Assembly: GCA_964653045.1 (NCBI GenBank)
Contig: CAZZBW010000001.1
Coordinates: 617-64,616 of the forward strand
From: an uncultured Pseudomonadales bacterium
GTDB lineage: Bacteria; Patescibacteriota; Microgenomatia; UBA1400; PJMF01
Reading direction: 5' to 3'
Length of the DNA: 64,000 nucleotides
This document shows, in pieces, positions 21,601 through 41,973 of this stretch (position 1 is its first letter; the number at the start of each line of letters is the position of its first letter). The notes under the pieces were generated by a model. It saw only the letters and a list, made by a program, of their open reading frames with translations, was not told the origin of the DNA and did not search any database. Position numbers and translations under genes: made by a program.

Positions 21601-24600
21601 ACTGCAAGAAGTTTGAAGCGCTGGTGCCGGTGCTTGTATTAGTTAAGTTTGCCGTGTAAGAGCTGCCATCTAGAGATGTAACAATATTCAACTTTGATGC
21701 TGGAGCAGTTGTCCCGATACCAACGTTGTCGCCGCTAATTGATAGCCTGGTGGCATCGGATCCTCCAGCAAAGGTATTAAAATCAAGTCTGCCTATTTCA
21801 CTGCCGGCAGTACTGCTAACAATATTCGCATTCATACTGGCATATTCTTGTTCAGCAAAGCCACTATCTAGTCCACCAAATGCAATTTCTCCCAAATTGG
21901 CTCCATTAGAATTGCTTGTGGTTTTTAGATAAAAAACACCAGCGGGAGAATTGCCACCCAACTGAAGATTAACGCCGCTAAGGACGCTGGACGTCTTTAT
22001 ACCAACATTTCCTATCACGATAGTATTTCTAAGAGCAGTATCTCCATCTACTTCCAAAGCGTCTTGCACATACAAATCTCCATCGCCTGTGGCACTGTTT
22101 ATTGTTCCTCCACTGCCAATCCGAACTTCATCTCCAGTTATTTGTAATTTGCCTAATGGGTTTGTTATCCCGATTCCGACGTTGCCTGTCCCGGCAGGCA
22201 TGAGGCTTAGGTGTTCGTTGGTGGCAGTAGTAATATCACTGGCGACGCCTGAAAAGTTGAGTGTTCCAGTCATGGTGTCGCCAGTGATATTCACCCAGTT
22301 GTCTGTAGAAGCAGGCATGTAGTAACTACCATGTTGATTATCTAGTAAATCTGCATTGAGATTTGTATTTAGAGTGGTAGAGGTAACAGCAAATGGAGAT
22401 GTACCTACAGCCAGTGAAGAAGTAATTTGACCTGAGTAGTTACCTAAGACACTATAGATATTGGCAAATCGAATGGCTGATGATCCCAGTTTTGAAGTGT
22501 TATTAGTTTGTCCACCAATATCTCCAGAGACCTGAAGCTTGAAGTTATTGGGATTGGTGGTTTCAATCCCGACGTTGCCGCCAAAATACGCAGCAACATT
22601 AGTATCTGCACCTGTTGGAGTTTCAACATACAAACCATAATTAGTTGAAGTACCGGTAAGGTTCATTGAGAGGGCGTTTTGGATATAGACACCATAGGCA
22701 TTAATAGTTCCACTAGTAACATTTCCACCTGCCTGGAATCTACCACCAATGGAGTGGGTAGTAGCGCCGTTGACTCCGGAGCTCCAACCAGAAAATTGTC
22801 CGCCGATAGTGTACTGTGTGCCTGTGGTTATCGCTGACATCTGGGAAGCCTGCAGAGCTCCTGCGGTAGTGGTACTGGCAGTGGTAGAAGTTGTTTGATA
22901 GTCGCTAATTAGACCAACACCAGCAGTTGCGGTACCAGTTAATCTGGTTTGAAAGATCGCCCCGAAACCGTACGCACCTGAAGCCAACGCGTCTTGAACT
23001 CGAAGTTTGGCATTTGGATTCGTCGTTCCAATACCGACGTTGCCGTTTCCTTTTATTGTAAGAGCATTTATAGGAGCGACTGCAGTTTTCGTTCGTATAA
23101 ATATATCTCCGTTATCATTGTTATATAAATTATCGATATATGAAGCTCCTGTACTATTATCATAAGTAAACTTTAATCCTTCGGTGGTAAGCGAGTCCCT
23201 ATCACTTAGAAATAGTACAGGATCAGTAGACTCGTTTGCAGATGCAATTTGAATATTACCATCGACATCGAGCTTTTGAAGTGGATTCGTTGTCCCGATA
23301 CCGACGTTACCGGCTGAGTCGATTCGCATTCTTTCAGTTCCTGTTGTAGTTGTTCCGTTAGCGGCGGTATAGAACAGCATATATGTAGTTGCATTCATCG
23401 CAGGTGTTCCTCCACCAAAGTGAAGAATGTTGTAGCCATTTTCACTTTGGGTTGTTGCTATTGCCACTGGTTCTTCTGCGTTAGTGTAATGATATCCTCC
23501 AAAACGACCCCATTTTTGTGTTGCGTTCGTTCTGGTTGAGGCTCCACTATCTGCTCCTAATATTAAAGCTAGTTGACCGTCGGCAATGTCTAACTTCCCG
23601 CCCGGACTTGTCGTTCCAATTCCTACCAGGTCACCAACTGTTGTTAGTCTCACAACGCTGCCATCATCTGTCCAACCACCGCCAATTGGACCGCCGGCAT
23701 TGATTGCTTCTCTGATACCTTGTTCTGTGACCAAAGTTGTGTCGTCGCCAGTAGCACCAACTGTAGTGGCAATGTAATTGACATTAGCACCTGTGGCCAA
23801 TTTAAGATCACCGTTGATGTGGAGTTTGGCAGAAGGAGTGGTGGTGCCGATGCCGACGTTGCCGTTGGCTGAAATTCTTAATCGCTCGTTGCCTGCAGCA
23901 CTTCCGGCAGTGAACATGGATATTACTCCCGCGGCGTTATTGGCTGTGAGAGACAAACCTCCTGAGTCATATCCAACTAAAGCTGTGGTGAGCGGAGCAT
24001 ATGCGCCTGAACCAGAGTAAGTTGAGCCGATGGAGTGAAGTGCAGCACCAACCGCTGCATCGGCATTACCACTATTTATTCTTAAAACACCATAGCCAGC
24101 GGTATTGGTATTGTCGATGAAAGCGCCGATACTACCGGTTGATGAACCACTGATAGCTAATTTATTGCCTGGAGAAGTGGTGCCAATACCGACGTTGCCA
24201 CCATTAGTTTGTAATGCTAATGCTTGATTACTCGCTTCCGTTGTCAAAATGGCATAGGAGTTATATACATTGAAATCCAGACCGGAACTTACTCCACCGA
24301 GACGCAAAGCGTTTCCGTTTGATCCATAAATGAATTGACCGTTCCCAACAACATCCAGTTTGTAACTCGGAGCAGTGGTGCCGATGCCGACATTGCTAGC
24401 AAGTGGATTTAAGATGAGAGGTGTTGATCCGTATGTTTGTATCCAACCGTAACTACCGGAAAGGTGTCCCATCGCAGTGCCGAACGCCCCTGAGGAAGGT
24501 GGTGTTCCTGAATCACTGATATCAGAATATCCACCAACAACACGTAATTTTGCTGATGGACTCGTCGTTCCAATACCCACGTTACCATTAGCAAAGATCG

Positions 24601-27600
24601 CGGCATAATTTGCAGTAGTGCCACCCGTTGCACTTGCATACAGCCCTACATTGGTTGAAGTTGTGCCGGCATGAGTATTGGTAATATATGCACCATAAGT
24701 TGTTTGAGCCGAAGTAACATTTGTGCCAGAAAGAGAAATATTCAAGCCTTTTTGAGTACTGCCAGTTGCTGCAGTAGAAGTTGTGACTAAGTCTAGTAAA
24801 GAACCAGAGCTTAGAGTGCTGGAACTGATTGCCAGCCCTTTGCCCGTAGTAAGTGAGTTGACATTGATTGCCATGGCATTACCAGTTGCGGTCGCATCAT
24901 CTAGCTGAAAGCCGTTGCCCGTATGAGCACCTGTGAAGTTAAATCTCACTCCACCATTACTGAAAGCTGAAGTAGAAGGAGAAGTAACATACAGAGCATT
25001 CCCAGTCAGTCCAGTTCCACCGGCTGTAATAGATAGGGCCGTGCCTGATGTCAGAGCAGTACCGGAGATACTGGATAGAGTTCCTGTTGTAGCTGAGTTA
25101 GCTGTCAGAGTCAGTAGCCCTGTCCCGGTATATATTCCGGTAGTAGCAATGGTGGCGCCGTTACCTGCGGTAGCGGCGCCCATATCTATATTAAGTAACT
25201 TTCCTCCCGTTGTCAGGCCTGCTCCAGAGCGAGCAAGAGAGAACATCGTTCCACTAGTTAGAGAAGTACTACTAGATGTTAGACCTGTACCAGTAGTCAG
25301 AGAGTTCCATGTCCAAGTAGAAGTATTAGCTCCCATTGTTAGTGACTGAGCACCCACTGGACTCTGAATCGCATCCCAGGTAGTACTACCAGTAGAGATA
25401 GTTGTCCAAGAAGTATTACCACTCCCATCTGTAGTCAGCATCTGATTAAGATCACCATCATTAGCAGGTAAAGTCAGAGTCCAATCACCTGCTGCTTCTG
25501 CAGGTTGGATTTGAGTGTAACCAGAAGTGTTGCCAGTTAGCCTGAGCGTTCCTCTACTAGTTCCTGCCGTACCTAGTTGAAGCATGGCACTGGGAGCAGT
25601 GGTACCGATGCCGACGTTGCCACTAACTATCATTGATCCTGCCCCAGGATCAGTGACTATATAGCCATTTCCCAAAGATAAGCCACCAGTTGCAGATAAT
25701 CGCATTTTTTCTGAACCAGCGGTTTGGAAGCCAATTAAGCTGTTTTGGTAACCATATATTGTTGAGGTGCCCCAAGACACACCATAGCCATCAGAAAGAC
25801 CGATATAGCCTGAATCGACTGTTAATTTATACGTTGGACTGGTTGTCCCAATTCCCACATTCCCCATAAAGTGACCTGTGCCAGTATTAGCATCTGCTCT
25901 GAACTTAGCACTGGCGGTGGAGTTACCACCGATATATAGATTAAGAGACTGATTAGTAGGAGAGAGTCCTTGGTTAGCTAGTGTCCAGTAGTTAGTACCC
26001 ACAGTAGTAGGATCTGTCCAAGTCGGAGCTGTATTAGCCCCAGCAGAAGTCAATAGATATCCAGACGTTCCTGCTGCTGCTCCTGGCATGATTGCACCAG
26101 AAAATTGGAGATTACCAGCAATATCTAACTTCTGAGTTGGATTAGTACTTCCGATACCAACGTTGCCGGCAGTGGGGGCCATGATCAGATTAGCTGCGGG
26201 AGTGATGGTGATATTACCAGTGCTGTTGGCAATGGTGGAGGCAGCTCCAGCGATGTGGAGTCTGGCAGTAGGGTTAGTTGTGCCAATACCCAAGTTGCCT
26301 GTGAAGTGGCCAGTGCCGGTATCAGCATCTGCTCTGAACTTGGCACTGGCTGTAGAGTTACCACCTATATATAGGTTAAGAGTTGTGTTGGTGGGGTATA
26401 AACCTTGGTTAGCTAGACTCCAGTAAGACCCACCTCCTGTAGCAGTCATCTCAATCCAGGTAGGATCAGCTCCAGCCCCATTGGTAGAGAGGACATAGCC
26501 AGCCGTACTAGGAGCGAGGGTAGACATGGCACCTGTGTTATTGAAGAAAGGTACACTTCCTCTAGCTACTGCACTCCAGTTCTGACCAGTACCACCATAG
26601 GTAGTGCTCAATGTTCCCCAGGTGGGAGCAGCAGCTCCACCAGAAATGAGAGCCATACCAGAAGTACCAGCTGTTAAGTGTCCATAAGCAGCAGTCCCAG
26701 TAGAGTAGATGATCTCACCAGCTCCACCAGCAGTCATGTTAGCTCCCAGGCCTCCACGAGTGACATTAACATACTGTTCTGCAGCGAGAGTGTTAGAGTC
26801 TGGTGACCAGTAAGCGTTGTAACCATTTGTCCCAGAACCATCAACCAATGAAGTTCCCCAGACCCTAGTATCAATGCTCCGAGTCTGGAGAGTACCTGAG
26901 CTATGAGTAACAACTGTATCAGTGCTACCGGCACCTAATGTACCAACTACCAAATTATCATCTGTCTTAAGAGTATCTGCGGCAGAGCGATAGAGATTAG
27001 TATCACTGCCAAAGCCAATTCCTCCCACAGCTGTGGTAGCTGCGGCTAGGTTGAGCTTGAAAGCTGGAGCGGTGGTACCGATACCGACGTTGCCGGAAAC
27101 TTGTTGGACAAAAAACGGATCAATTACTCCATAAGTATCAATATATACACCCTGTCCTGAAACAGCTCGAATCGAATGATTAATATCTAGCATATATAGC
27201 GTGTTATTAACAAGCGCGTTACCGACCACTTCTAATTTCTGCGTTGGAACCGTTGTCCCAATCCCTACATTCCCCATGAAGTGACCAGCACCAGTATTGG
27301 CATCTGCTCTGAACTTAGCACTGGCTGTGGAGTTACCACCAACATATAGATTGAGAGTAGTATTAGTTGGATGAAGTCCTTGGTTAGCTAGTGTCCAGTA
27401 GTTAGTACCAACAGTAGTAGGATCTGTCCAAGTCGGAGCTGTATTAGCTCCAGCTGAAGTCAATAGATATCCAGATGTTCCTGCTGCTGCTCCGGGCATG
27501 ATTGCACCAGAGAACTGGAGATTACCAACAATATCGAGTTTCTGAGCAGGAGCGGTACTACCGATACCGACGTTGCCAGAATCAACAATAAGACCATAGT

Positions 27601-30600
27601 TTTTAACTGCTCCAGTAGCAGAAAAGTATCCCGCTACGTTAGTTGATGTGTTTATACCACCACCTGTTGCTGTTGAATAAATTCCATATCTTGTTTGGCT
27701 GTCTATAGATCCAATTTGTGAAACACTGACTGCTTTTCCACCACTAACCATTGTATCTGCGTATATATCTAAATAAGCTCCCGGACTTGTCGTTCCCACT
27801 CCTACATTCCCCCCCATATCTACCACAAACGGTGTGGTATCAGCATAAGTACCATCATCATTCACCCGTAGAGCTAGAGCACCAGTTCCAGTCTGAGAAG
27901 TAGTAATATTGAGAGCAGTACCAGAACCAAGAGCATCAGTACCAAGTAGCCCTACCTTAAGCGCACTCCCATCTACATCAGCATCTGCATTGTTATACTC
28001 AAACTTAGCCAGATCACCTGTCCAAGTAGAAGCTGGAGCACCTGTAGCAGAGAGATTAAGTAATCCTCCGCTCGATAGAGCAGTAGAAGAAGTAGAGAGA
28101 GAGAACATCGTTCCACTAGTCAGAGAAGTACTACTAGATGTTAGACCTGTACCAGTAGTCAGAGAGTTCCATGTCCAAGTAGAAGTATTAGCTCCCATTG
28201 TTAGTGACTGAGCACCCACTGGACTCTGAATCGCATCCCAGGTAGTACTACCAGTAGAGATAGTTGTCCAAGAAGTATTACCACTCCCATCTGTAGTCAG
28301 CATCTGATTAAGATCACCATCATTAGCAGGTAAAGTCAGAGTCCAATCACCTGCTGCTTCTGCAGGTTGGATTTGAGTGTAACCAGAAGTGTTGCCAGTT
28401 AGCCTGAGCGTTCCTCTACTAGTTCCTGCCGTACCTAGTTGAAGCATGGCACCGGGAGCGGTGGTGCCGATCCCCAAATTACCTGCAAAGTAACCAGCCC
28501 CAGTGGCTCCATCAGCCATGAATTTGGCACTGGCAGTGGAGTTACCACCTACGTAGAGATTGAGAGTGGTGTTGGTGGCGTGTAGACCTTGGTTAGCTAG
28601 TGTCCAGTAGCTGGTGCCTGTGATAGTACTTGGATCCGTCCAAGTCGGGGTGGCGCCGGCACCAGCGGAAGTCAGAAGGTATCCGCTGGTGCCGGCAGAG
28701 CTACCTGGCATGATTGCTCCAGAGAATTGGACATTACCAACGACGTCTAGTTTCTGAGCTGGAGCGGTACTACCGACACCAACATTGCCGGTTGGAACCA
28801 AGAAATTACCGGTACCACTCAGGTTAGCAATGATGTCGCCAGCGCCGTATGTTTTGAGTGTCAGGTTATTACTTTCCCAGGCTTCGCCGACAGTGATGCT
28901 AAATGGCCCATAAGTCTGAATGTTTGAGCTAGTTTGGTTGGTGAAAATTAGGTCGTACGCCATCGACACATCACCTGCAGCGGTGAATTGATGGGGGACG
29001 GCACTGGTGATCTGATTTTGTGCGACAGAAAATACTTCGCTATCGTTGTTATATATTCCCAAAATTTTGCCAATGTTGCCGTATTGACCGACATTTAGCT
29101 TAAACAAGTCGCCGGTGGCATATACTTCGGTGGAACCAGATGGGTTCCAGTTGAGGTAAGCCAAGTTACCGGTCGTCAGAGCAGTTGAGGTTGATTCAAA
29201 ATACAGGCCGTTGCCGGTAGTCAAGCCGTCGAGGCTGACGTTGATACCGTTGCCTGAAGTGATCGAGTCGCCGGTTAGATTAAGCAAACTGGTGGTGTTG
29301 GTACTGACAATGTTGAGTTTGGCATTGGGCGCGGTGGAGCCAATACCGACATTGCCGGCGCTGGTGACATTAAACAAGGAGTTGACGTCGAAGAACGAAA
29401 GAGGTGAAGTGGAGCCAATACCCACATTACCATTATTTAGAATGGTGAAACGCTCGGTCAGACCAGCATCTCCGCCAGTTGAGGTGCGGATGCCGAAGGT
29501 ACCGCCATTGAGGATGTTGAGTTTTGTGGCTGGGTTGGCGCCTGTAGGGACTGCTAGCGCGAGGTTGCCAGAAATACTAGCGGTGGGTGTGCCAGAGTTA
29601 ACGTTGAGGAAGGCGAACTTGGCAGAAGAAGAAGCAGTTCCGCCGATCAGCATATCTAGAGAAGTGTTGTTTGGCGAAATTGTGCCGGCATTTACAGTCC
29701 AGTTGCTGGAGGGGCCACAGTTGCCTGAAGCATCACACACCATTTTGTCGCCCCAGTACAGGCTGCTTGAAGCCGCACCGGCAGCAGCGGAAGTGTTGAG
29801 GACATTGTTGGCGCCAGCCGCCCCCAGGCGGATGGCGCCACTCACGTCTAATTTTTGTGAAGGTGTGGTTGTCCCAATCCCTACATTTCCAGCAAAGTAT
29901 CCTTGTCCGGTTGCTCCATCAGCCATGAACTTGGCAGTGGCTGTGGCATCACCACCCACATATAGATTCAGCGATTGATTAGTAGCAGATAGTCCTTGGT
30001 TAGCTAATGTCCAGTAGTTAGTTCCAGTAATAGTACTTGGATCTGTCCAAGTAGGAGTACCTGATCCAGCGCTCGTTAACAGATAACCAGTGGTACCGAC
30101 ACTACTAAAGCCATATGCAGTCCCAGTAGAGTAAGCAATCGTGCCAGCTGAACCTACAGTAGTAGCATTAGTCCCACCATTTCCAACTCCTAATGTTCCT
30201 GTTACTTCAGCTGATGCTAGATTAATCGCTGCACTGATTAGATCCTTATTAGCATTAGTCTTAACTGGCAGAGAAGCAGTTAGACCTGTGACTCGCACAT
30301 CACCCGCAACTTCCAGCTTTTGAGCTGGGGTGATAGTTCCAATTCCGACATTACCAGAATTAGCTAGAAATATCTGGTTGCCCCCGTCTTGAGATTTGAG
30401 TAACAAACCAGAAACTGTATTTGCCGTACTAATTGTTGCTGGGTTTGTACCGTCATAAGTTGTAAACAATAGCGATCTATTTGCGGAATCTCTGATGCGT
30501 AAGGAACCACCTGTTCCAGCAAGTATGTCAACAAATGAGATGGGATTCGTAGTTCCAATTCCCACGTTTGTCCCGTTGTTATATAGAAGTGAATTAGCAA

Positions 30601-33600
30601 TCCAAGAAGTACCATCATGGCGGAGGGTCTGACCGCTGGTACCAGTGGGGAGCAGCACACTAGATAAATTTGTCCAGACTGGGGCAGTATTCGCTCCTTG
30701 GCTCTGTAAGTAATATCCACTGGTACCAGCTAAGCCGCCTGGCATCAGGGCATTACTAAACTGGAGATTGCCAGCAATGTCTAGTTTTTGAGCTGGAGCA
30801 GTGGTGCCGATGCCGACGTTACCGGTAGTATTTATAACGAATTTTTGGTTCGCCGCATTGTAATCGGTGCCGATTCCGTAACTATATTGGGCACCGCCAT
30901 AAAATACACCAGAAAACCATGATGCGCTTGCTCCTGTGTATTGAATTCCAGCAATGCGGTCTATTGCTCCTCTGGTTAACTCTAAAATGGCTGAATTTCC
31001 TTCAAATTTAGCCATTGTTGCCAAGGATGGACCATTGGTAACATTCAAAATTACGCTTGGACTCGTCGTCCCAATTCCCACATTCCCCATGAAGTGACCA
31101 GCACCAGTGTTTGCATCTGCTCTAAACTTAGCACTGGCGGTGGAGTTTCCACCGATATATAGATTAAGAGACTGATTAGTAGGAGAGAGTCCTTGGTTGG
31201 CTAGTGTCCAGTAGTTAGTACCAACAGTAGTAGGATCTGTCCAAGTAGGAGTACCTGATCCAGCACTGGTTAACAGGTATCCGGTAGTACCAACACTACT
31301 GAAGCCATATGCAGTCCCAGTAGAGTAAGCAATCGTGCCAGCTGAACCGACTGTCGTGGCTCCCGTACCACCATATCCAACTCCCAGAGTACCAGTCACT
31401 TCAGTCGAACCCAAGTTAATCGCTTCACTGATCAGATCTTTATTAGCATTAGTTTTAACAGGTAGAGAAGCAGTTAGACCTGTGACTCGCACATCACCCG
31501 CAACTTCCAGCTTTTGAGCTGGTGCAGTGGTACCGATACCGACGTTGCCGGTAGAACTAATTGCTAACCTTGTCGTAGTTGTCTGGTTAAAATATATTGG
31601 ACCATCGCTTCTTTGATTTGCGATAATTGCAGAAAGACCACTGGCCGCTCCCGTAATTTTAACCCCATTGGATGAATCAAGTGAAGCTCTAATAAGGATA
31701 GATGGGGCACTGCCGGCAACATCTAAATTTGAACCGGCGATCGTCGTCCCAATCCCGACGTTCCCCATAAAGTGACCTGCACCAGTGTTTGCATCTGCTC
31801 TAAACTTAGCACTTGCCGTGGAGTTACCACCGATATATAGATTTAGAGACTGATTAGTAGGAGAGAGTCCTTGGTTAGCTAATGTCCAGTAGTTAGTACC
31901 CACAGTAGTAGGATCTGTCCAAGTAGGAGCTGTATTAGTCCCAGCAGAAGTCAATAGATATCCAGATGTTCCTGCTGCTGCTCCTGGCATGATTGCACCA
32001 GAGAATTGGAGGTTACCGGCTATGTCTAGTTTCTGAGCTGGTACTGTTGTCCCAATCCCTACGTTTGTCCCATCGTTATGTAGAAGTGAGTTAGCAATCC
32101 AAGATGTGCCGTCGTGTCTGAGGGTCTGGCCGCTGGTACCAGTGGGGAGTAACACACTAGACAAATTTGTCCAGACTGGGGCAACATTGGCTCCTTGGCT
32201 CTGTAAGTAATATCCACTGGTACCAGCTAAGCCGCCTGGCATCAGGGCACCACTGAACTGCAGGTTACCAGCTATATCTAGTTTCTGAGTGGGAGCAGTA
32301 CTACCAATGCCGACATTGCCAAGTGGATTAACAACAAATAATGATTGCGATGTTGAATCTTGAATCTGAAAGATATTGGCTGTCTGAGAAGCTGCTCCCT
32401 TAAGAATAAGGGCGTTATCTGTGGCGGTGTTGGACTGTAAGGTAAAATCATCGCTTGTCCAAATACCATTGAATTTTATTAAACCGTATCTTGAAGCAGA
32501 TGCTTGGGGGTATTGGTTAACGGTGCCGCTGGTAGTGTTGTTGGTCAAATACGAGTAATAGAGGTTAGCAACTCCGCCAGTACTGATGTCGTAGTCTGAA
32601 CCCCCAAAATAACTATTTTTTGCATTTACGGTATAGGCACCAGGAACATATAGTCCATACCTGGTGCCAGTAAAGTATCCAACGCTTGACACAGTAGTTC
32701 TCTCAATTGAAATTGTTTGCCAATTGTTGTATATGCCAACGGCGTCTTTATAGTCACCTCTTACCGATACGTTGCTGTCAAATATTGAAAGGGATGCGTT
32801 CGAGCTAAATATTCCATATAAGCTTCCGGAGCCAGTTGTTGATGAAACCGAAATAGACACATCACGGATAATGTTGCCGGATGTCCCTGATCCGGCGCCA
32901 ACTGTTATTGCTGCTACTGATCCGATATCTTTAATGTTTGTTGTATTACTGATTTGAATATCTTCTATCGACGATCCGCTACCAGACAAGTTCACTATAT
33001 AATTTATGCCTGTTCCTGCCGTTCCATCCCCATTTATTACAACATTTCCCGCACGTGATTTAAGTGTCGTATATGCAGGAACCAGTACGTTTTCAGTATA
33101 AGTACCAGGTAACACTTCAACTAAAAAGCGATTGTCTGGTGCTGGTGATTGTGTAGAAACATAAGTCATTGCGGCAGAAATGGTTGTGAAATCACCTTCG
33201 CCGTCAGGATCGACCACGACAGCGTGATCATAGGGACTCAGCATGCCGTCTTGAAATCTCACCTGACCTCCAGTTACGTCTAGCTTGTATTGAGGAGCAG
33301 TCGTCCCAATTCCTACATTCCCCATAAAGTGACCAGCACCAGTATTAGCATCCGCTCTGAATTTAGCTGAGGCTGTGGAGTTACCACCAACATACAGATT
33401 AAGAGATTGATTAGTAGGAGATAGTCCTTGATTAGCCAGTGTCCAGTAGTTTGTACCTACAGTAGTAGGATCTGTCCAAGTAGGAGTTCCTGTTCCAGCA
33501 CTGGTAAGTAAGTAACCTGTAGTACCAACACTACTGAATCCATATGCAGTCCCAGTAGAGTAAGCAACACTACCAGCTGAGCCTACCGTAGTAGCATTAG

Positions 33601-36256
33601 TACCACCATTACCTACACCCAGAGTACCTGTCACTTCAGCACTAGCTAGATTAATAGCTCCACTAATTAGATCTTTACTGGTATTAGTCTTAACCGGTAG
33701 AGAAGCAGTCAATCCTGTAATCCGGACATCGCCAACTACCTCTAGCTTCTGAGCTGGGGAAGCGGTACCGATACCAACATTACCCGTAGTTGGTAAGATT
33801 ACCAGATCTTCTGCAGGAGTAATGGTGATATCGCCATCATCGTTGGCAATTGTTGAGGCTGCGCCAGCGATGTGTAACCTGGCGGCAGGATTGTAAGTGC
33901 CAATACCAACATTACCCATAAAGTGACCAGTACCAGTGTCTGCGTCAGCCCGAAATTTAGCCGTAGCGGTGGAGTCGCCACCGACATAGAGGTTGAGAGT
34001 GGTATTAAGTGCGTGTAATCCCTGATTAGCCAGTGTCCAGTATGTCTCACCTGTGGCCGTCATCTCGATCCAGGTGGGATCGGCTCCAGCGCCGTTGGTA
34101 GAGAGGACATAACCAGCAGTACTTGGGGCAAGGGTGGTCATGGTGCCAGTGTTGTTAAAGAAGGGAATGCTGCCTCTGACCACACTACTCCAGTTCTGAC
34201 CAGTCCCGCCGTTACTGACACCTAGTGCGCCAGTTACTTCTGAACTGGCGAGATTAATTGCAGCACTAATGAGATCTTTATTGGCGTTAGTCTTGACTGG
34301 CAGAGATGCAGTCAGGCCTGTGATCCGGACATCTCCTACTACCTCAAGCTTCTGAGCAGGTGCGGTGGTGCCGATACCGACATTTGTCCCATCGTTAAAA
34401 AGAAGTGAGTTGGCTGTCCAAGATGTGCCGTCGTGTCTGAGAGTCTGACCGCTGATCCCAGTGGGCAGAAGAGTGCTGCTCATATCTGTCCAAACTGGCG
34501 CCGTATTAGCTCCCTGACTCTGTAAGTAATACCCACTGGTACCAGATTGGCCGCCTGGCATCAGGGCGCCGGAGAATCGGAGATTACCTGAGACGTCGAG
34601 CTTTTCTACAGGATTCGAGGTACCGATTCCCAGATTACCAGCCGAATTAATTACGCCAAGAGTAGTATCTGTACTCGTTTTCCATTGGGCAATATCGGCG
34701 GTGGCGGATGGGCCGGCTTTGAGGATGAGGGCGGTGCCACCCGCGTAGGTAGCGGAGAGGGTGGCACCGGGAGCGCTCAGATAGCCTTCCACATCTAAAT
34801 CAGAATTGATTTCAACTTTGCCAATTCCATCAGGGTCAAGGACAATGTCACCGTTCGAGCCGGCCGGAGTTTGGAGAGTCAGGGTCGCAGCTTCAATGGT
34901 GAATGATGTGCCAGTAGATTTGAGTATACTGTTGGACTCAGCAATCAGGATTTGACCGGCGTTGTCCATTACAAGAACAGTATTTTTGGTAGCACCACCA
35001 GTGGGAGCTGGAGGGTAACCTTGGAGCGTTTCGGAGTTGAGGGCATACGCCACTGATTTAATCGCTTGTCGCGGCGTCAGCACCTCTGCGTCGACCTCAA
35101 CCTCCAGCCAGACGTTGGAGTTTTCGGTAAATACTTCATTACCGATCTCGGCGCCGCACTCGTCGCCCAAGCCTATGGAAAAAATACCGTCTTGATCTGG
35201 ATCGACGCTACACGTCCCGCCTGAGTCCCAGAGCAAACTTCCGCCTGTACCTGGGCCGGTGTCGTAGAGATAGAACCGGACTGGAGTGGGGTCAATAATT
35301 GGGGTTTTGGCAATATCGGTTAATCTTCCTTGAAACGAGAGCGATCGATAAGGTCGGGTGAGCTCGGTGGGATAAGCAAGAGAAGGTGTGGCCGAGTCAA
35401 GCCACTGTTGATAGCCAAAAAGGCCTAGAGCCGAGAACAATAAAGCAACTATGGCCAATGTGGTGTAATTGAGCGAAGGTGCGCGGCTGGCGGAATGAAG
35501 TCGAGAGAGGGCGGAATTGAGTTGATACTGCCAGTCCTGATTGGAGCGAGTACTGACAGAACTGGTAAAGTTGTGATCTAAGGTGAGTAAAGGCAGCTGC
35601 CAGAGTTGTTTTTTGTTGGCAGAAGGTGTTTGTTTGGGTGTTTTGGGTAACTTTTTGGTCTTAAGTCCAGAAGCCATTCGGGTTAAGTGGGGCTCCGCCT
35701 GCGCATTAAGAGCAACAATTTCTGAGAAGCCATGTTCGACAAAACCCTCTTTTTGTAGCCATAGTGCAAATTGGGTAATACTCGATAATTTCCTTTTGAC
35801 CGTGCTGATTGATTGACCTTGGAAAAGAGAATTCTCGAGGAAGCTCAATAATTTGGGTTTTGTCAGAATTTGGGTTAGAGAAGATTGCTGGATGAATGCG
35901 ATGAATTGGCCGATATCAGAGCGATAACCCTTAATCGTTTGCGGTGAGCAGTGGGCACGATGGAGTGCTAAAAGATATGTTTGGAGCGCGACTCCAGCCT
36001 GGGAAATGAAATAGAGTCTTGCAAACTGATGGAGCAAGGGTTGGGGCTGACGTTTCGGATGAAGAAAGCGAGAAAGTAAAGCACGGGCGTGTCCAAACAG
36101 ATTTTGAGCCGCTTGGTGATGATGAAGTTCGACCAGCTCATCGATGGCAGCACGAATATCTTGCTCTTTGGCCTCAATTGAGCGACCAAAAAGACCTACA
36201 AGGTCAATGAGGGCAATGAAAGTGCGCTTTTCGGTTGGCATGAGCAGCTTTGTCAA
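18674..36256 (-). CDS. Giant (5860 aa) surface fibril protein: N-terminal integrase-type core-binding domain, one TM helix, then a long tail-fibre-like repeat array
   Basis: Continuous ORF. Residues about 90-180 match the Phage_integrase_N / XerCD core-binding fold. TM LAIVALLFSALGLFGY. At least 30 copies of the GNVGIGTT.P..KL.V.G motif. At least 9 copies of YWTLANQGL...NLY.GG.STASAKF.AD. A tail-fibre-like LDNQHGSYY module. C-terminal coiled-coil region. Confidence 0.8.
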   Translation of the reverse strand: MTKLLMPTEKRTFIALIDLVGLFGRSIEAKEQDIRAAIDELVELHHHQAAQNLFGHARALLSRFLHPKRQPQPLLHQFARLYFISQAGVALQTYLLALHRAHCSPQTIKGYRSDIGQFIAFIQQSSLTQILTKPKLLSFLENSLFQGQSISTVKRKLSSITQFALWLQKEGFVEHGFSEIVALNAQAEPHLTRMASGLKTKKLPKTPKQTPSANKKQLWQLPLLTLDHNFTSSVSTRSNQDWQYQLNSALSRLHSASRAPSLNYTTLAIVALLFSALGLFGYQQWLDSATPSLAYPTELTRPYRSLSFQGRLTDIAKTPIIDPTPVRFYLYDTGPGTGGSLLWDSGGTCSVDPDQDGIFSIGLGDECGAEIGNEVFTENSNVWLEVEVDAEVLTPRQAIKSVAYALNSETLQGYPPAPTGGATKNTVLVMDNAGQILIAESNSILKSTGTSFTIEAATLTLQTPAGSNGDIVLDPDGIGKVEINSDLDVEGYLSAPGATLSATYAGGTALILKAGPSATADIAQWKTSTDTTLGVINSAGNLGIGTSNPVEKLDVSGNLRFSGALMPGGQSGTSGYYLQSQGANTAPVWTDMSSTLLPTGISGQTLRHDGTSWTANSLLFNDGTNVGIGTTAPAQKLEVVGDVRITGLTASLPVKTNANKDLISAAINLASSEVTGALGVSNGGTGQNWSSVVRGSIPFFNNTGTMTTLAPSTAGYVLSTNGAGADPTWIEMTATGETYWTLANQGLHALNTTLNLYVGGDSTATAKFRADADTGTGHFMGNVGIGTYNPAARLHIAGAASTIANDDGDITITPAEDLVILPTTGNVGIGTASPAQKLEVVGDVRITGLTASLPVKTNTSKDLISGAINLASAEVTGTLGVGNGGTNATTVGSAGSVAYSTGTAYGFSSVGTTGYLLTSAGTGTPTWTDPTTVGTNYWTLANQGLSPTNQSLNLYVGGNSTASAKFRADANTGAGHFMGNVGIGTTAPQYKLDVTGGQVRFQDGMLSPYDHAVVVDPDGEGDFTTISAAMTYVSTQSPAPDNRFLVEVLPGTYTENVLVPAYTTLKSRAGNVVINGDGTAGTGINYIVNLSGSGSSIEDIQISNTTNIKDIGSVAAITVGAGSGTSGNIIRDVSISVSSTTGSGSLYGIFSSNASLSIFDSNVSVRGDYKDAVGIYNNWQTISIERTTVSSVGYFTGTRYGLYVPGAYTVNAKNSYFGGSDYDISTGGVANLYYSYLTNNTTSGTVNQYPQASASRYGLIKFNGIWTSDDFTLQSNTATDNALILKGAASQTANIFQIQDSTSQSLFVVNPLGNVGIGSTAPTQKLDIAGNLQFSGALMPGGLAGTSGYYLQSQGANVAPVWTNLSSVLLPTGTSGQTLRHDGTSWIANSLLHNDGTNVGIGTTVPAQKLDIAGNLQFSGAIMPGAAAGTSGYLLTSAGTNTAPTWTDPTTVGTNYWTLANQGLSPTNQSLNLYIGGNSTASAKFRADANTGAGHFMGNVGIGTTIAGSNLDVAGSAPSILIRASLDSSNGVKITGAASGLSAIIANQRSDGPIYFNQTTTTRLAISSTGNVGIGTTAPAQKLEVAGDVRVTGLTASLPVKTNANKDLISEAINLGSTEVTGTLGVGYGGTGATTVGSAGTIAYSTGTAYGFSSVGTTGYLLTSAGSGTPTWTDPTTVGTNYWTLANQGLSPTNQSLNLYIGGNSTASAKFRADANTGAGHFMGNVGIGTTSPSVILNVTNGPSLATMAKFEGNSAILELTRGAIDRIAGIQYTGASASWFSGVFYGGAQYSYGIGTDYNAANQKFVINTTGNVGIGTTAPAQKLDIAGNLQFSNALMPGGLAGTSGYYLQSQGANTAPVWTNLSSVLLPTGTSGQTLRHDGTSWIANSLLYNNGTNVGIGTTNPISFVDILAGTGGSLRIRDSANRSLLFTTYDGTNPATISTANTVSGLLLKSQDGGNQIFLANSGNVGIGTITPAQKLEVAGDVRVTGLTASLPVKTNANKDLISAAINLASAEVTGTLGVGNGGTNATTVGSAGTIAYSTGTAYGFSSVGTTGYLLTSAGSGTPTWTDPSTITGTNYWTLANQGLSATNQSLNLYVGGDATATAKFMADGATGQGYFAGNVGIGTTTPSQKLDVSGAIRLGAAGANNVLNTSAAAGAASSSLYWGDKMVCDASGNCGPSSNWTVNAGTISPNNTSLDMLIGGTASSSAKFAFLNVNSGTPTASISGNLALAVPTGANPATKLNILNGGTFGIRTSTGGDAGLTERFTILNNGNVGIGSTSPLSFFDVNSLFNVTSAGNVGIGSTAPNAKLNIVSTNTTSLLNLTGDSITSGNGINVSLDGLTTGNGLYFESTSTALTTGNLAYLNWNPSGSTEVYATGDLFKLNVGQYGNIGKILGIYNNDSEVFSVAQNQITSAVPHQFTAAGDVSMAYDLIFTNQTSSNIQTYGPFSITVGEAWESNNLTLKTYGAGDIIANLSGTGNFLVPTGNVGVGSTAPAQKLDVVGNVQFSGAIMPGSSAGTSGYLLTSAGAGATPTWTDPSTITGTSYWTLANQGLHATNTTLNLYVGGNSTASAKFMADGATGAGYFAGNLGIGTTAPGAMLQLGTAGTSRGTLRLTGNTSGYTQIQPAEAAGDWTLTLPANDGDLNQMLTTDGSGNTSWTTISTGSTTWDAIQSPVGAQSLTMGANTSTWTWNSLTTGTGLTSSSTSLTSGTMFSLSTSSTALSSGGLLNLSATGAPASTWTGDLAKFEYNNADADVDGSALKVGLLGTDALGSGTALNITTSQTGTGALALRVNDDGTYADTTPFVVDMGGNVGVGTTSPGAYLDIYADTMVSGGKAVSVSQIGSIDSQTRYGIYSTATGGGINTSTNVAGYFSATGAVKNYGLIVDSGNVGIGSTAPAQKLDIVGNLQFSGAIMPGAAAGTSGYLLTSAGANTAPTWTDPTTVGTNYWTLANQGLHPTNTTLNLYVGGNSTASAKFRADANTGAGHFMGNVGIGTTVPTQKLEVVGNALVNNTLYMLDINHSIRAVSGQGVYIDTYGVIDPFFVQQVSGNVGIGTTAPAFKLNLAAATTAVGGIGFGSDTNLYRSAADTLKTDDNLVVGTLGAGSTDTVVTHSSGTLQTRSIDTRVWGTSLVDGSGTNGYNAYWSPDSNTLAAEQYVNVTRGGLGANMTAGGAGEIIYSTGTAAYGHLTAGTSGMALISGGAAAPTWGTLSTTYGGTGQNWSAVARGSVPFFNNTGAMSTLAPSTAGYVLSTNGAGADPTWIEMTATGGGSYWSLANQGLYPTNTTLNLYIGGNSTASAKFRADADTGTGHFTGNLGIGTTNPTARLHIAGAASTIANSTGNITITPAANLIMAPTAGNVGIGSTNPTQKLDIAGNLQFSGAIMPGAAAGTSGYLLTSAGANTAPTWTDPTTVGTNYWTLANQGLSPTNQSLNLYIGGNSTASAKFRADANTGTGHFMGNVGIGTTSPTYKLTVDSGYIGLSDGYGVSWGTSTIYGYQNSLIGFQTAGSEKMRLSATGGLSLGNGYIVTDPGAGSMIVSGNVGIGTTAPSAMLQLGTAGTSRGTLRLTGNTSGYTQIQPAEAAGDWTLTLPANDGDLNQMLTTDGSGNTSWTTISTGSTTWDAIQSPVGAQSLTMGANTSTWTWNSLTTGTGLTSSSTSLTSGTMFSLARSGAGLTTGGKLLNIDMGAATAGNGATIATTGIYTGTGLLTLTANSATTGTLSSISGTALTSGTALSITAGGTGLTGNALYVTSPSTSAFSNGGVRFNFTGAHTGNGFQLDDATATGNAMAINVNSLTTGKGLAISSSTLSSGSLLDLVTTSTAATGSTQKGLNISLSGTNVTSAQTTYGAYITNTHAGTTSTNVGLYASATGGTTANYAAIFANGNVGIGTTSPSAKLRVVGGYSDISDSGTPPSSGAFGTAMGHLSGSYGWIQTYGSTPLILNPLASNVGIGTTAPSYKLDVVGNGQFIYGSNGNALRLGGVSSGLDFNVYNSYAILTTEASNQALALQTNGGNVGIGTTSPGNKLAISGSSTGSIGAFIDNTNTAGYGVLRINSGNADAAVGAALHSIGSTYSGSGAYAPLTTALVGYDSGGLSLTANNAAGVISMFTAGSAAGNERLRISANGNVGIGTTTPSAKLHINGDLKLATGANVNYIATTVGATGDDTTLVTEQGIREAINAGGPIGGGWTDDGSVVRLTTVGDLVGIGTTSPGGKLDIADGQLALILGADSGASTRTNATQKWGRFGGYHYTNAEEPVAIATTQSENGYNILHFGGGTPAMNATTYMLFYTAANGTTTTGTERMRIDSAGNVGIGTTNPLQKLDVDGNIQIASANESTDPVLFLSDRDSLTTEGLKFTYDNSTGASYIDNLYNNDNGDIFIRTKTAVAPINALTIKGNGNVGIGTTNPNAKLRVQDALASGAYGFGAIFQTRLTGTATAGVGLISDYQTTSTTASTTTAGALQASQMSAITTGTQYTIGGQFSGWSSGVNGATTHSIGGRFQAGGNVTSGTINAYGVYIQNALSMNLTGTSTNYGLYVETPTGADTNVAAYFGGNVGIETTNPNNFKLQVSGDIGGQTNNTSKLGSSAIRFANIYSVLGNYSGQITSSLAVGTSPFAVTSTTLNTNLNADLLDNQHGSYYMPASTDNWVNITGDTMTGTLNFSGVASDITTATNEHLSLMPAGTGNVGIGITNPLGKLQITGDEVRIGSGGTINSATGDGDLYVQDALEVDGDTALRNTIVIGNVGIKTSSVLSGVNLQLGGNSPAGVFYLKTTSNSNGANLGEIAFGGLDSGFAEQEYASMNANIVSSTAGSEIGRLDFNTFAGGSDATRLSISGDNVGIGTTAPASKLNIVTSLDGSSYTANLTNTSTGTSASNFLQFGNNASSDLFLVGLRGSAYTGEGNDALIWNRAGSNIRFGTNNSLKMILTASGNLGIGTTTGAGQKLEIYGGNLKINANNAGILGGATNTSTAGFIYMAALDDDKMFRFWTDSATAQYNTAEGGGWSSASFDYAEKFPYVNETSVSKGDLVSVVANDGVIETLDRASRQYDENLVGIVSTQPGFIGGIPWDDSEGENKKSPNLEKAVALAGRVPVKVSTINGPLKTGDRVTSSNLPGIGMRSSQAGFSAGYVLQNFNPDPASCQYVASAEGILWPDFPKGGSPLEYTKDCYRLPDGTLIGKVIAFVNPGWFDPDTSLTSVSQLSLSHTADSSYDVYDPSGQKINRVSAFSQSMIGELTAGLVLSKEIFVEDKLVSPIVESNQIITDQLASRNITTNSLEFKGDTGKILASVDATGKASFTEAVINRVSIPTQALISNLVANSISATNVAADALSVGGKSLSIYVREIVDEALANTSGLIASIPEILQLSDLVVNRRAEINELEVNTLAINQIPIDQYLDERIAQRLSAVSPTPTPSVTDPVSFDPTQPTLLGELNAQEVTVSGGLSASSVTTTTVDTQNLVADSGSFELELKATDLEATAARFDVIESNLAKIDEVTALTASLANATVSGTLYVENIADLDQHIAEAFTQPSLSELFFNEKSEITQELDQINQLIASLDSTVQELSSFDKSLEELSLTEEEVVLNGSALFIEEYFRVNGTGYIAESLGIGQQLNIGNKVQLTENYLAFTANPEAEGELAIFQIQPSGKGVLSIMAGLMTLDETGLVNITGNLHVAGDITTEGSLLSNLLQPVDFGNPFQVQVAGASSESGELKNSRFEIVDATGAPVATISAQGRAEFAGGIGIGSEDLSDQSASASADTVINTDKTSGKAVLPAGQSLLVIETSAITDKSLVYITPLGSTQNQVLYVASQQPDQEIITEATEEKPEETVIIPGHFSVAVDQALDTDLQFNWWIVN
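25241..25590. repeat. About 350-bp intragenic repeat, copy A (near-identical to 28114-28463)
   Basis: Direct comparison of the two stretches shows 1 mismatch over about 350 bp. Both lie inside the 5860-aa ORF and encode the same about 116-aa segment (...GAMLQLGTAGTSRGTLRLTGNTSGYTQIQPAEAAGDWTLTLPANDGDLNQML...). Confidence 0.85.
28114..28463. repeat. About 350-bp intragenic repeat, copy B
   Basis: See copy A. The copies lie about 2.9 kb apart, in direct orientation and in frame. Confidence 0.85.
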
Positions 36257-36739
36257 AATACGTTTGTACCAGATTGATTACACCCAAAACAAATACTTAA
36301 CCAGTGTAGAGAAATCGAGAAGTAAGTCAAGATCGAGTAATCCAGGCTAAAATTAATAATAGTAATAAAGCTCACAAAATTAAACAAAAAGCAGAATATA
36401 ACTGCAATATTAACGTATTTTCACAATAAGCCACTGTGATCAGAACGGATCAATGGAAGTAACATGTTTGGATAAAATTCGATAAGTGGAGATAAAATGG
36501 ATAAGAACTAGACTTGCATCCACATCGTGAATATGTTCTACTTATGTGATCTAAGTGAACGTAAATAAAAAAGAATAAGTATAAGTACTGTGATTACTAG
36601 AGTAAAAAGGATTAATGATACACATATCAAACAGAAAAACTGCTAATTATGATTGTTTGGGTGAGCTAAGTGTGGAAAACCTCTTAACTGATCAATAAAT
36701 ATACTTTAATATTAACATGATAACTGCAAAGATAACTTT

Positions 36740-37486
36740 ATGAAAAAGTCATCACTCAAGGTTCTTATTAGTCTGGGGGCGTTAGGTTTACATTCTGCCC
36801 ATCTCGACGAGAATTACTTATCAGTAATAGTGCCCGAGCTGAGCATTAATGGGCAAAGATCGTTGATTTATCATCTAAAGCGATCTTTCTTGGTTGAACA
36901 GTTCCGACCTGCCAAAGGAATAAAGAGCTTGCGAATTACAACTGGGGGGATGAGAGTGTTGAAGGCTGAATTTCCGGCTCTCTTTCCTGAAAATGGAAAG
37001 AGAGCCGGATGGCACTGTATGGTGTTCGTTAAGCCGCCAAAGAATGACCCGGCTTTTCGATATCTGCGTTCCCAGGTGATAGCAGATGGAGGTATCAATC
37101 TAACTAGAGGGGTATATCTCAAGCAGTCGCCTTATTCGACCAAGCTGATGATGATGTGTGACAAGCTGTACGCCCAAGCAATCAGTATATTTTTGATAGA
37201 TTCTTGGATATTTGGGTTTGATTCGCTATATTTGGAGAAAATGCAGGGAGCAGATACCCATTTTTCACTACTGTCTGGTGTTAGCAGTGAAATAACTCAA
37301 TTGCTAAGTAAAATTAGCAAAGATAATATTGCGCAATATCAGCGAAAAAAGTTAATTGAGGGTCTGTTAGAAAGATACTATGCAATTACTCTCAATTATC
37401 CATACTTTACCAATAACGAATTCTCTCAATATATCTCGACATCGAACGTATATTTACAGGTGGGAGAGCTCTTAAAATTATTGTGA
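36740..37486 (+). CDS. Hypothetical protein, possibly a winged-helix (PaaX-like) regulator, divergent from the giant gene
   Basis: 248-aa ORF after a 480-bp AT-rich intergenic region. Weak resemblance to the PaaX N-terminal wHTH (SLIYHLKRSFLVE...LRITTGG). No strong motif recognised. Confidence 0.4.
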   Translation: MKKSSLKVLISLGALGLHSAHLDENYLSVIVPELSINGQRSLIYHLKRSFLVEQFRPAKGIKSLRITTGGMRVLKAEFPALFPENGKRAGWHCMVFVKPPKNDPAFRYLRSQVIADGGINLTRGVYLKQSPYSTKLMMMCDKLYAQAISIFLIDSWIFGFDSLYLEKMQGADTHFSLLSGVSSEITQLLSKISKDNIAQYQRKKLIEGLLERYYAITLNYPYFTNNEFSQYISTSNVYLQVGELLKLL

Positions 37487-37790
37487 CGTTGACCATAAAG
37501 TGGGTTGTCAATTACCGCACTATAATTTCATACCGAAGAGGGCAGAAAAATGATTTTTCTTAGCTATAATACGATTGGGTGCTTCGGGTTTGAAAATATT
37601 GATCCTTGGACTAGTATCATTGTCTAACATTGTAATATTAATAACATATATATCACTAATGCGGCAATAACTTACTAGAGTAGCGGTAATAAAGCGGCTA
37701 AACCGCGTTAATACATATTTTTATCTCTTCTGGCAAGGTGTTTGAGTGAAATCTTAAACTCTACATTAATTACCCAAATAAAGGCCATTG

Positions 37791-39413: not shown

Positions 39414-40401
39414 TTTTCTTGCTGATAAGGTGTCTGCGAATAATAATTATCATAGCGACAACTACCAGCAGTGCAATGATCACGGCGAGTACTAAAGTAA
39501 TTGGGAAGAGCCAAAAGCTGAGTTTAGCAATCACGACTTTCCCTGATTGACCGTAATTCATGGTCAAAGTGGCAAAATACTTTCCCGTTCCCCAGATTTG
39601 TTCAAACTTACCATCAAATGGCCGCTCAGCCAGAGGAAAGACATTTTTTGACTCAATATTAATGCTGGCTACCTGCCGACCAAACATATTGGTAATTTCC
39701 AAGTTGATGTTGGGTTGAATATGAATGTCTGAGAGGTTCTCAACACTGAAAGAGAAAGGCACGGGACCGTACTCAGAAAAGGCTGGCATCTTAAAGTTGC
39801 GGATATATGCCTCTTCATTAATCGGTCCGTTGACGAAAACATAGAGTAGAGTGCCGACTTTTTGACTTATGCCAGACTGAGACTCGGTGAGTTGATCTAC
39901 TTCAGCACTGTCAAGCTTTTCCGGAGTGGGTTGGTGAGTGATCATGGCATAGTGACCACCTGGCAGAGCATCTGCGGGGATCTCGATCACCACTGATAAA
40001 GCCTTGACTTCATTAGCCTGAATTGTTTGTGAGTTGGGGGCGATGGTGATCCAATCAGCCAGGCTCCAGCGTGTGGAGGTTGATTCGGTAATGGGCATGG
40101 GGGTGGAACCATCGGCGCCGATCACAAAATCTTGAGCTTGAGACACAACATTTATCTGAGTGGTCGAAGAGTTTTTCACTCTAATGCTAGTTTGCAATGT
40201 TTCTCCTGGGTTACCCTTAAGAGTTCCGTCGTCACCGAGGCGAGGAGGGATAGCAGTTAGAGTCACCTGATTTTCGTCAGTAACTTGGGCGAAAACAGAA
40301 GCTAGAAAATGAGTTTTTCCCAAAAATACCAAGCCGGCAATAAACAAGGATAAGGCAAGTATTCTGGAGAGCTGGGATTTGGTTTTGTCTGGGCAGGACA
40401 T
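39349..40401 (-). CDS. Cell-surface protein with DUF916/DUF3324-like architecture (signal peptide, beta-rich ectodomains, C-terminal TM anchor plus basic tail)
   Basis: Signal peptide (LALSLFIAGLVFLG). C-terminal TM LFPITLVLAVIIALLVVVAMIIIIRRHLISKK. Internal ...IPADALPGGHYAMIT motif paralogous to the 41974-42966 product. Confidence 0.55.
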   Translation of the reverse strand: MSCPDKTKSQLSRILALSLFIAGLVFLGKTHFLASVFAQVTDENQVTLTAIPPRLGDDGTLKGNPGETLQTSIRVKNSSTTQINVVSQAQDFVIGADGSTPMPITESTSTRWSLADWITIAPNSQTIQANEVKALSVVIEIPADALPGGHYAMITHQPTPEKLDSAEVDQLTESQSGISQKVGTLLYVFVNGPINEEAYIRNFKMPAFSEYGPVPFSFSVENLSDIHIQPNINLEITNMFGRQVASINIESKNVFPLAERPFDGKFEQIWGTGKYFATLTMNYGQSGKVVIAKLSFWLFPITLVLAVIIALLVVVAMIIIIRRHLISKKNDQSARIKELENKLQDLEKKA

Positions 40402-40424
40402 ATTTGGCTTAAAGTTAATATTTA

Positions 40425-41903: not shown

Positions 41904-41973
41904 ATTTTGACAACAAAAAATCTGCTAATTCGTCCATTGTAGTCAGGTCAATGGATACTTTGCAATAGGCAAT

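Follow-up and report, generated by a model that had tools for sequence, protein, structure and literature searches.

Tyrosine recombinases such as XerC/XerD are soluble proteins of ~300-400 amino acids (aa) in which a core-binding (CB, SAM-like) domain (PF02899) is joined to an R-H-R-Y (RHRY) catalytic domain. FliZ of E. coli and Salmonella has only the CB domain and acts as a global repressor by occupying extended -10-like promoter elements (PMC3367168). The present study deals with a giant gene in a stretch of 64,000 nucleotides (nt) of a Patescibacteria genome (contig CAZZBW010000001.1, positions 617 to 64,616; the whole stretch is called the window here). The protein of 5,855 aa which it encodes likewise has a CB domain, but without the RHRY domain and fused to a transmembrane (TM) helix and a giant ectodomain. 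It is like FliZ in having a CB domain without a catalytic domain, and here conserved TGTGGAWAA boxes overlap predicted -10 regions. FliZ is however a soluble protein of 183 aa with a C-terminal CB-like region, whereas the CB domain of the giant is N-terminal, sometimes doubled in the family, and membrane-tethered. MrpR/YopR of SPbeta and SroF of phi3T, recombinase-like repressors found among the structural matches, keep both lobes (CB and a degenerate catalytic fold) and are soluble and phage-encoded, unlike the giant. By prediction the layout is the same as that of ToxR/TcpP/CadC, with an inward N-terminus (N-in), a cytoplasmic N-terminal domain, one TM helix and an outer sensor part. These regulators have an OmpR-type winged helix and an outer domain of ~100-300 residues, in contrast to the CB fold and the ~5,570-residue fibre of the giant, and no winged helix-turn-helix (wHTH) match was found in the N-terminal domain studied here.

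It is near certain that the giant gene codes for a single-pass N-in membrane protein, in which a pre-domain and a Xer-derived CB domain without a catalytic domain stand before a tail-fibre-like surface fibre; the N-in topology itself is predicted. It is equally near certain that the protein belongs to a large, vertically inherited family of Patescibacteria with one or two CB domains. The same layout recurs in more than 100 giant genes related to it, which suggests that giant fibres are wired to DNA or to gene control inside the cell. We tentatively propose, with somewhat less than even confidence, that the CB module is a membrane-tethered DNA-binding domain that would couple the fibre to transcription at the divergent control region beside the gene. 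The parts of the gene and of its product are as follows.

18674..36241, minus strand: giant gene, 5,855 codons and stop, first ATG at 36241; predicted type-II (N-in) membrane-anchored fibre protein.
36002..36241, minus strand: residues 1-80, helical pre-domain of 3-4 helices, cytoplasmic (AlphaFold2, AF2, and alignments).
35657..36001, minus strand: residues 81-195, tyrosine-recombinase CB domain.
35474..35656, minus strand: residues 196-256, cytoplasmic linker, basic, low-complexity, net charge +7 (sequence; predicted local distance difference test, pLDDT, <50 in AF2).
35405..35473, minus strand: residues 257-279, single TM helix (signal anchor), LNYTTLAIVALLFSALGLFGYQQ (hydropathy).
34982..35389, minus strand: residues 285-420, conserved head of the ectodomain, AYP..TRP.R.LSFQGRLTD ... 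PDQDGIF ... VFTENSNVWLEV ... PRQ.I..V.YALN.
18674..19573, minus strand: conserved C-terminal domain ending in ...LVYITPLGSTQNQVLYV...FNWWIVN and the stop, a family signature (translation).

A preliminary description made from the letters of the window had reported an integrase-type domain at the N-terminus of this protein, followed by a basic linker, a TM helix and a giant extracellular part but by no catalytic domain. Its residue numbers run from an upstream TTG and are 5 higher than the ATG-based numbering used here. The Pfam scan of residues 1-295 bears out the domain, as PF02899 (Phage_int_SAM_1) matched at 34.5 bits (curated cut-off 22.3; E 2.5e-8), covering model positions 3-83 of 83 and residues 88-166 (35744-35980). 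The match was still of 31.2 bits inside a 2,995-aa query, and PF13495, the second model against which a check had been proposed, was also over its cut-off (29.3 bits against 27). Alignment to the NCBIfam XerC/XerD equivalogs was limited to positions 5-94 of ~295, giving 38 bits against cut-offs of ~330-335. When the whole protein of 5,855 residues was scanned as two pieces no further Pfam family was found at E<=0.01, and hence no PF00589, so that the reported lack of the catalytic domain stands.

The first AF2 model (residues 1-300, 4-sequence alignment) was confident over residues 81-190 only, where the CB domain is a helical bundle superimposable on solved CB domains. The helices of the pre-domain (3-21, 26-41 and 45-59) had pLDDT of 63-80, and residues 1-60 with these three moderate-confidence helices gave no specific fold match; in alignments the pre-domain of residues 1-80 is kept in the closest clade and in P0003. 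The structural comparison with XerD, another check proposed in the preliminary description, gave a match of fold. The structural matches are listed with their scores and, where given, Å / aligned length.

3nrw: 12.5; 1.7 Å / 95.
Brujita Int: 12.4.
lambda Int: 11.9.
XerD 1a0p: 11.9; 1.6 Å / 88 (23% identity).
XerH-difH: 11.4.
XerA: 11.0.
IntI4: 10.5.

The family profile also matches XerA, 3nrw and XerD by sequence. PDB 9i5v ('RaiA') was considered as a precedent for a fusion outside the recombinases and was rejected, since its paper models 34 residues of a 400-aa protein and leaves the N-terminal part unmentioned. The top-conserved columns of the family domain fall in two segments, S..TI(K/R)NY(R/K)SDI.QF and (K)RKL.SI.QF..W. 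The first of these corresponds to helix 2, by which integrases and FliZ touch DNA and on which their specificity residues lie (PMC3367168). The specificity positions are near-invariant across clades of only 25-45% identity, and the mean net charge of the family CB domains (+4.6) is equal to that found for the CB domains of genuine recombinases from this data set. The second segment we take to be DNA-contacting as well, from what is known of Cre and lambda Int.

The remaining architecture also agrees with what had been described. Besides the linker of charge +7, the length and charge of which were also compared across the family, residues 257-279 form the sole hydropathy peak within the first 700 residues. 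The flank upstream of the TM helix is basic and the downstream flank has no charge and no Lys/Arg; in the family K+R is 1-8 on the N side and mostly 0-1 on the C side. A motif of the TM region, ..LGLG.FGYQQF, is kept in relatives, and the head is kept in 23 genome loci and is also found in a distant branch (signature LKYYKSDI) which keeps the layout of CB, TM and head. Beyond the head the ectodomain is repetitive and G/T/A/S-rich.

The fusion of such a domain to a giant surface fibre had been called unexpected. It is not a singular oddity but belongs to a large family that is conserved in Patescibacteria. When one genome of each GTDB species was scanned, 32 loci came up, and 23 of them are from Patescibacteria metagenome-assembled genomes (MAGs) named Woesebacteria, Pacebacteria, Parcubacteria group or Patescibacteria group. 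At these 23 loci one tblastn match covers CB, linker, TM and the start of the ectodomain, and the open reading frames (ORFs) are of 1,450 to >3,750 residues or run past the contig edge. The other 9 are ordinary recombinases of ~325 aa (genuine recombinases in the same scan: 320-366 aa, with one ORF of 502-563 aa). With a hidden Markov model (HMM) of the family the domains of the giant fibres score 100-125 bits each as against 27-41 bits for true recombinases, and they thus form a subfamily separate from XerC/XerD; the upstream CB copy of some tandem proteins scores 66-76 bits. The window protein, at 133 bits, has everything that defines the family, namely CB, TM, head (LSFQGRLTD...PDQDGIF) and the ..FNWW[IL]VN end.

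When 1.84 billion cluster representatives were searched exhaustively with HMMER (E<=1e-10), 198 of them matched (at least 198 clusters at 50% identity), with lengths that reach 7,697 aa. The 89 representatives of at least 1,000 aa were examined, a few of which came from cluster look-ups and not from the search list. All 89 have a CB domain within the first ~360 residues, which settles the question raised in the preliminary description whether homologous giant genes keep it, and in all of them one or two CB domains (two in 28) lie ahead of a TM segment. Exactly one strong hydrophobic segment, 40-250 residues past the last CB copy, is present in 69, and the head motif ([FY][QRN]G[RK]L) follows ~45 residues past the TM segment in 83. 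The end ..FNWW[IL]VN was found in 51, and the representatives without it probably end early. Three word-indexed protein searches gave 2, 1 and 10 matches, which are fragments of <=367 aa except for one protein of 466 aa.

Some relatives carry LamG domains and Peptidase_S74, an intramolecular chaperone of trimeric tail fibres, though the window protein itself has no S74 match (Pfam, E<=0.01). In these domains and in the repetitive ectodomain the family is like phage tail fibres or spikes and giant adhesins. Unlike phage tail fibres, the giant genes are chromosomal and syntenic and code for an N-terminal signal anchor. Since no relative was found in the viral contigs searched, we rejected the view that the locus derives from a prophage or from a phage tail fibre; the flanking genes are housekeeping ones (Obg, LeuRS, ArgRS, NDK and ComEA/EC).

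The names under which relatives are deposited at NCBI follow the N-terminal domain, with 'phage integrase N-terminal SAM-like domain-containing protein' for MCB9813502.1 (5,466 aa) and 'site-specific integrase' for MBT6898759.1 (5,205 aa, Pacebacteria) and MBT3249409.1. The latter name is wrong because the catalytic domain is missing. A full-text literature search found no paper describing the architecture, and a giant-gene preprint of 2023 makes no mention of integrase, recombinase or DNA-binding domains. Many of the host MAGs bear the misleading label 'uncultured Pseudomonadales', and one record, CP011212.1 (nt 1-11535 analysed), is titled 'candidate division TM6', yet its locus groups with the Patescibacteria family members.

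The preliminary description had raised the possibility of a true start codon downstream of the CB domain. The minus-strand ORF 18674..36256 has no interruption (ORF list and translation), and the protein from the first ATG (36241) begins MPTEKRTF... and has 5,855 residues. In all related loci the motif M/V-[PT]-A-[QK].. stands directly at an ATG or GTG, and MPTEKR of the window aligns with MPAQQR of relatives. A start further downstream would leave a strongly conserved in-frame domain untranslated, and this possibility can be dismissed. A wrong start, an assembly fusion or a decaying integrase would each put the SAM-like segment outside the mature protein, and a separate catalytic subunit would make recombination possible. 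Such readings could appeal to the name 'site-specific integrase' on relatives and to one contig of 2.3x coverage (L002) in which the SAM-SAM (CB) part and the TM part lie in two overlapping frames, most simply a sequencing indel. Against them are a reading frame that is unbroken both in the window and in ~90 long proteins, independent of one another and taken from different studies, the scores of 100-125 bits on the family HMM, which indicate purifying selection, the conserved start-codon context, the lack of a catalytic domain in the protein and the lack of matches in viral contigs. The artefact, relic and true-recombinase readings are effectively excluded.

Upstream of the giant gene lies a long spacer, and beyond it a divergent partner gene.

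36242..36739: AT-rich divergent spacer, 498 nt, 31% GC against 46% for the window.
36671..36679, minus strand: box 1, TTTTCCACA, then N8 and ACCCAAA; faces the partner gene as TGTGGAAAA; positionally conserved.
36517..36560, minus strand: diverged copy of a ~75-nt block (..TTCAC..CACATAA..ATTCAC..TGTGGAT..), by local alignment at the homologous position.
36261..36284, minus strand: diverged leader hairpin (consensus GTCTAAT-GA(A)TCTGG-(A/G)TTAGAC), 20-45 nt upstream of the giant start.
36740..37486, plus strand: partner gene, 248 aa, divergent; PaaX-like putative transcription regulator (putative wHTH and Cas2-like middle domain).

In all 23 cases the spacer is of 498-804 nt with 26-37% GC, the loci checked being at 38-46%. 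Such a length is unusual for genomes so compact, and the spacers hold conserved sequence islands. Two mutually inverted 9-mers, TT(A/T)TCCACA (TGTGGAWAA), are found at a spacing of 188-211 bp. Each has a -35-like hexamer 11 nt upstream of it, facing one of the two genes, and each of the two predicted promoters has its predicted -10 region overlapped by one of these inverted boxes. The spacers, 14 kb in all, contain TTWTNCACA 47 times where 2.3 are expected (~20-fold). Its density of 3.4 per kb in spacers is 15x that in whole loci (0.22 per kb), so that it is a locus-specific site and no general promoter element. An invertible promoter of the fim-switch type, with 9-bp inverted boxes ~190-210 bp apart, was considered and found unsupported, as the inverted repeat stops at the 9-mer and the orientation and position of the ~75-nt block are constant in 21/21 detected loci. 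That block lies ~270 nt upstream of the giant start, with nhmmer E of 1e-15 to 1e-21 in 15 loci and weaker matches in 6.

The ~20-fold enrichment of DnaA-box-like 9-mers in a long AT-rich spacer would also suit a chromosome tether, one of the roles named in the preliminary description. The CB domain and the lysine-rich linker would then pin the nucleoid, non-specifically or near the origin, and serve segregation, polarity or transertion, and the pinned region could be a DnaA-box-bearing stretch beside the gene, possibly oriC. The giant genes point away from the spacer, as co-orientation with replication predicts, and the complete genome CP011212.1 has its coordinate 1 inside the spacer, the giant ORF starting at nt 531. 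The chance of such a start inside the spacer is ~6e-4, and it may mark the depositors' predicted origin. However, each spacer has just 1-4 boxes, no dnaA gene is nearby, and the GC skew of the window, +0.09 to +0.11 at 1-8 kb and +0.08 to +0.19 at 36-56 kb, shows no switch of sign. Further, the conserved residues at the specificity positions suggest a defined target and not bulk DNA. We regard the tether as improbable, and the spacer 36242-36739 was rejected as oriC since its kind, though enriched in boxes, holds so few of them and the skew is positive on both sides.

The leader of the giant gene has a hairpin of its own. It recurs throughout the clades (in L011 at ~9751-9771, for example), and its variation includes one compensatory change and several variants of the G.U kind. 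In some genomes it is in frame, so that database proteins begin 'MIWIRQ..', and elsewhere the stop comes after the hairpin; its conservation is therefore at the nucleotide level. It could be thought that the CB domain, which is translated first, binds this hairpin on its own nascent 17.6-kb mRNA and throttles initiation. The place of the hairpin 20-45 nt before the start, its compensatory and G.U variants, and the N-terminus, which would emerge minutes before transcription of the gene ends, are in line with such a role in cis. To our knowledge, though, no RNA-binding CB domain has been described. RNAalifold, run on leaders from six related loci, returned -13 kcal/mol with no compensatory pair, and thus no larger structure supported by covariation, and Rfam gave no match over 35500-37600. 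The hairpin could moreover serve another factor or an RNase, and we consider RNA binding by the CB domain very unlikely. A large structured leader RNA is likewise unsupported on the RNAalifold result, the hints of pairing being limited to the small hairpin. A 15-nt inverted repeat (36250-36264 / 36412-36426, 93% complementary, 147 nt apart) has one arm 9 nt before the ATG, and comparable inverted pairs in L021 and L010 join the conserved block to the start-codon region. Such pairs may be a long-range pairing of the leader or a second operator.

The divergent partner is a constant companion of the giant gene. An ortholog lies upstream in 22/22 genome loci that retain upstream DNA, plus L001. 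In the reverse search, in which the partner protein (as a clade-restricted alignment) was run against metagenome contigs, 7/7 loci with at least 1.1 kb of upstream DNA have a divergent family-type CB ORF, the CB domains of which score 104-116 bits. The pairing is thus found in 30/30 informative loci. PaaX_M (Cas2-like) is matched by 19/23 orthologs at E<=0.1, the best at 1.3e-5, and one ortholog reaches the curated cut-off (24.3 bits against 24); the copy in the window has no Pfam match. The profile of the partner family has weak matches to PaaX 8a39, PaaX-like 3kfw and wHTH 1ub9 (E 0.13-1.3). The partner gene can be called a PaaX-like regulator, an assignment that is weak for the window copy.

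Such strict co-occurrence suits a physical partnership as well as co-regulation, and this brings in the main rival, a protein-docking role of the kind also named in the preliminary description. The CB fold would have lost DNA binding and, at the fibre's base, would hold on to a cytoplasmic partner. One candidate is the PaaX-like protein, which would be kept at the membrane and set free depending on the state of the fibre; others are secretion, assembly or pilus machinery. RodZ models such docking; it too is a single-pass membrane protein, its cytoplasmic N-terminus has a fold of the DNA-binding type and it binds MreB, but this fold is an XRE helix-turn-helix and its outer domain is small. The sequestration of Mlc at the membrane by PtsG is a further parallel. 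The additional conserved helical pre-domain ahead of the CB domain and the pseudopilin genes conserved nearby would fit docking, and isolated recombinase CB domains bind their core sites weakly without the catalytic domain. On the other hand the positive charge and the helix-B/helix-D signature of DNA-binding CB domains are kept. No precedent for a protein-binding CB domain was found, whereas FliZ, MrpR, SroF and Ndc10 are described or deposited as DNA binders. Docking is possible, though we hold it to be doubtful.

Among tethering, regulation and protein interaction, the roles considered in the preliminary description, the new context favours regulation or site-specific DNA binding, because of the divergent PaaX-like partner, the control region with its locus-specific 9-mers and the precedents of FliZ and MrpR. 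DNA binding is also favoured by the conserved segments, which include the DNA-contacting helix 2, by a net charge equal to that of genuine CB domains, by the existence of recombinase-fold repressors (FliZ, MrpR and SroF) and by the near-invariant specificity positions, which parallel the conserved DNA elements beside the gene. A lone CB domain lacks multivalency, which tandem CB domains and probable trimers would provide; the two CB domains of 28/89 representatives fit recognition of two half-sites. The domain identity, the missing catalytic domain and the family-wide conservation of the architecture, the gene pairing and the cis-elements are established by the data; DNA binding, its target sites and a feedback logic we infer. 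The CB module would keep the ancestral activity of its fold and bind duplex DNA via helices B and D. Its likeliest target would be the gene's own AT-rich divergent control region, which it has in common with the PaaX-like partner, and the inverted TGTGGAWAA boxes over the -10 regions of both predicted promoters would be the binding sites. Since chaperone domains of the Peptidase_S74 kind occur in relatives, the fibres put together in the membrane are probably trimeric, and assembly would cluster the CB domains and raise their avidity for the sites. In this manner the abundance or state of the fibre could feed back on the transcription of a very costly operon, jointly with the PaaX-like protein. 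Cells from the candidate phyla radiation (CPR, Patescibacteria) are only ~0.2-0.3 µm across, and in cells so small the membrane would always be within the chromosome's reach.

Several points weigh against this proposal. The weak binding of isolated CB domains is one, and conserved residues are no proof of contact with DNA, since they also make up the structural core of this domain. The 9-mer is the DnaA-box consensus, so that DnaA and the PaaX-like protein are candidates to bind it besides the CB module and could do so in its place. The window's block and hairpin are diverged copies; the block escaped nhmmer, and there are two mismatches in box 2. The G.U-tolerant variation of the hairpin points to control at the RNA level that would need no CB domain. 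The distant branch keeps CB, TM and head, and in it no partner gene and no boxes were detected (one frameshift-ridden contig). A bolder reading, in which the fibre is at once adhesin and receptor and thus a bacterial analogue of contact-dependent signalling in the manner of ToxR or even Notch, is unlikely in our view. Host contact, tension or trimer assembly of the fibre would be signalled via the TM helix to the CB domain, or would set off its release by proteolysis; the CB domain would bind the inverted TGTGGAWAA boxes and switch the divergent promoters with the PaaX-like partner. If true, episymbiotic CPR bacteria would in this way have the surface of the host wired directly to their chromosome.

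The gene next to the giant in the window is itself a giant.

7060..18672, minus strand: second giant gene, 3,870 aa, N-in TM, nine LamG (Laminin_G_3); starts 2 nt past the stop of the first giant.

It is probably co-transcribed with the CB-giant. Its product has a basic cytoplasmic tail of ~80 residues, an N-in signal anchor and matches to sialidase/neurotoxin-type lectins, and no SAM-like domain was found in it. Further downstream are three tandem pseudopilin genes on the opposite strand (N_methyl motif, 5537-6990, plus strand) and then a 711-aa TPR protein (3322-5457, minus strand). Two relatives, L007 and L012, have informative ORFs downstream; in both the second giant is absent at this position and ORFs of the same sizes and strands follow the CB-giant, so that by ORF layout alone the LamG giant is an extra insertion of the window. 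A third giant gene of 2,249 aa (55530-62279, plus strand), with seven Rha78A-like N-terminal immunoglobulin domains, is unrelated to the CB family. Just upstream of it a small ORF and a PIN-domain gene (54644-55307, plus strand) probably make up a toxin-antitoxin pair of the VapBC type. The stretch from the PaaX-like gene to LeuRS has a run of six genes (37791-44471, minus strand) which include a Big_13/SdrD-like protein and one weak match to a WxL-interacting peptidoglycan-binding domain, and which may be a surface-protein cluster. The LeuRS-ComEA-ComEC neighbourhood recurs beside the distant family member in L035.

Patescibacteria make up a large share of bacterial diversity, and those that have been cultivated live attached to host cells. 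Little is understood of how CPR bacteria perceive and control attachment, and most of their giant surface proteins carry no annotation. The name 'site-specific integrase' on proteins of 2,000-7,700 aa will mislead predictors of mobile elements and prophages. The family offers a fixed architecture that can be tested with a soluble module of 200 residues, a DNA fragment of 500 bp and boxes of 9 bp. Should the module bind DNA, this would be a CB domain used in membrane-tethered form, for which no description was found, and the few recombinase folds known to have been exapted as regulators would gain one more.

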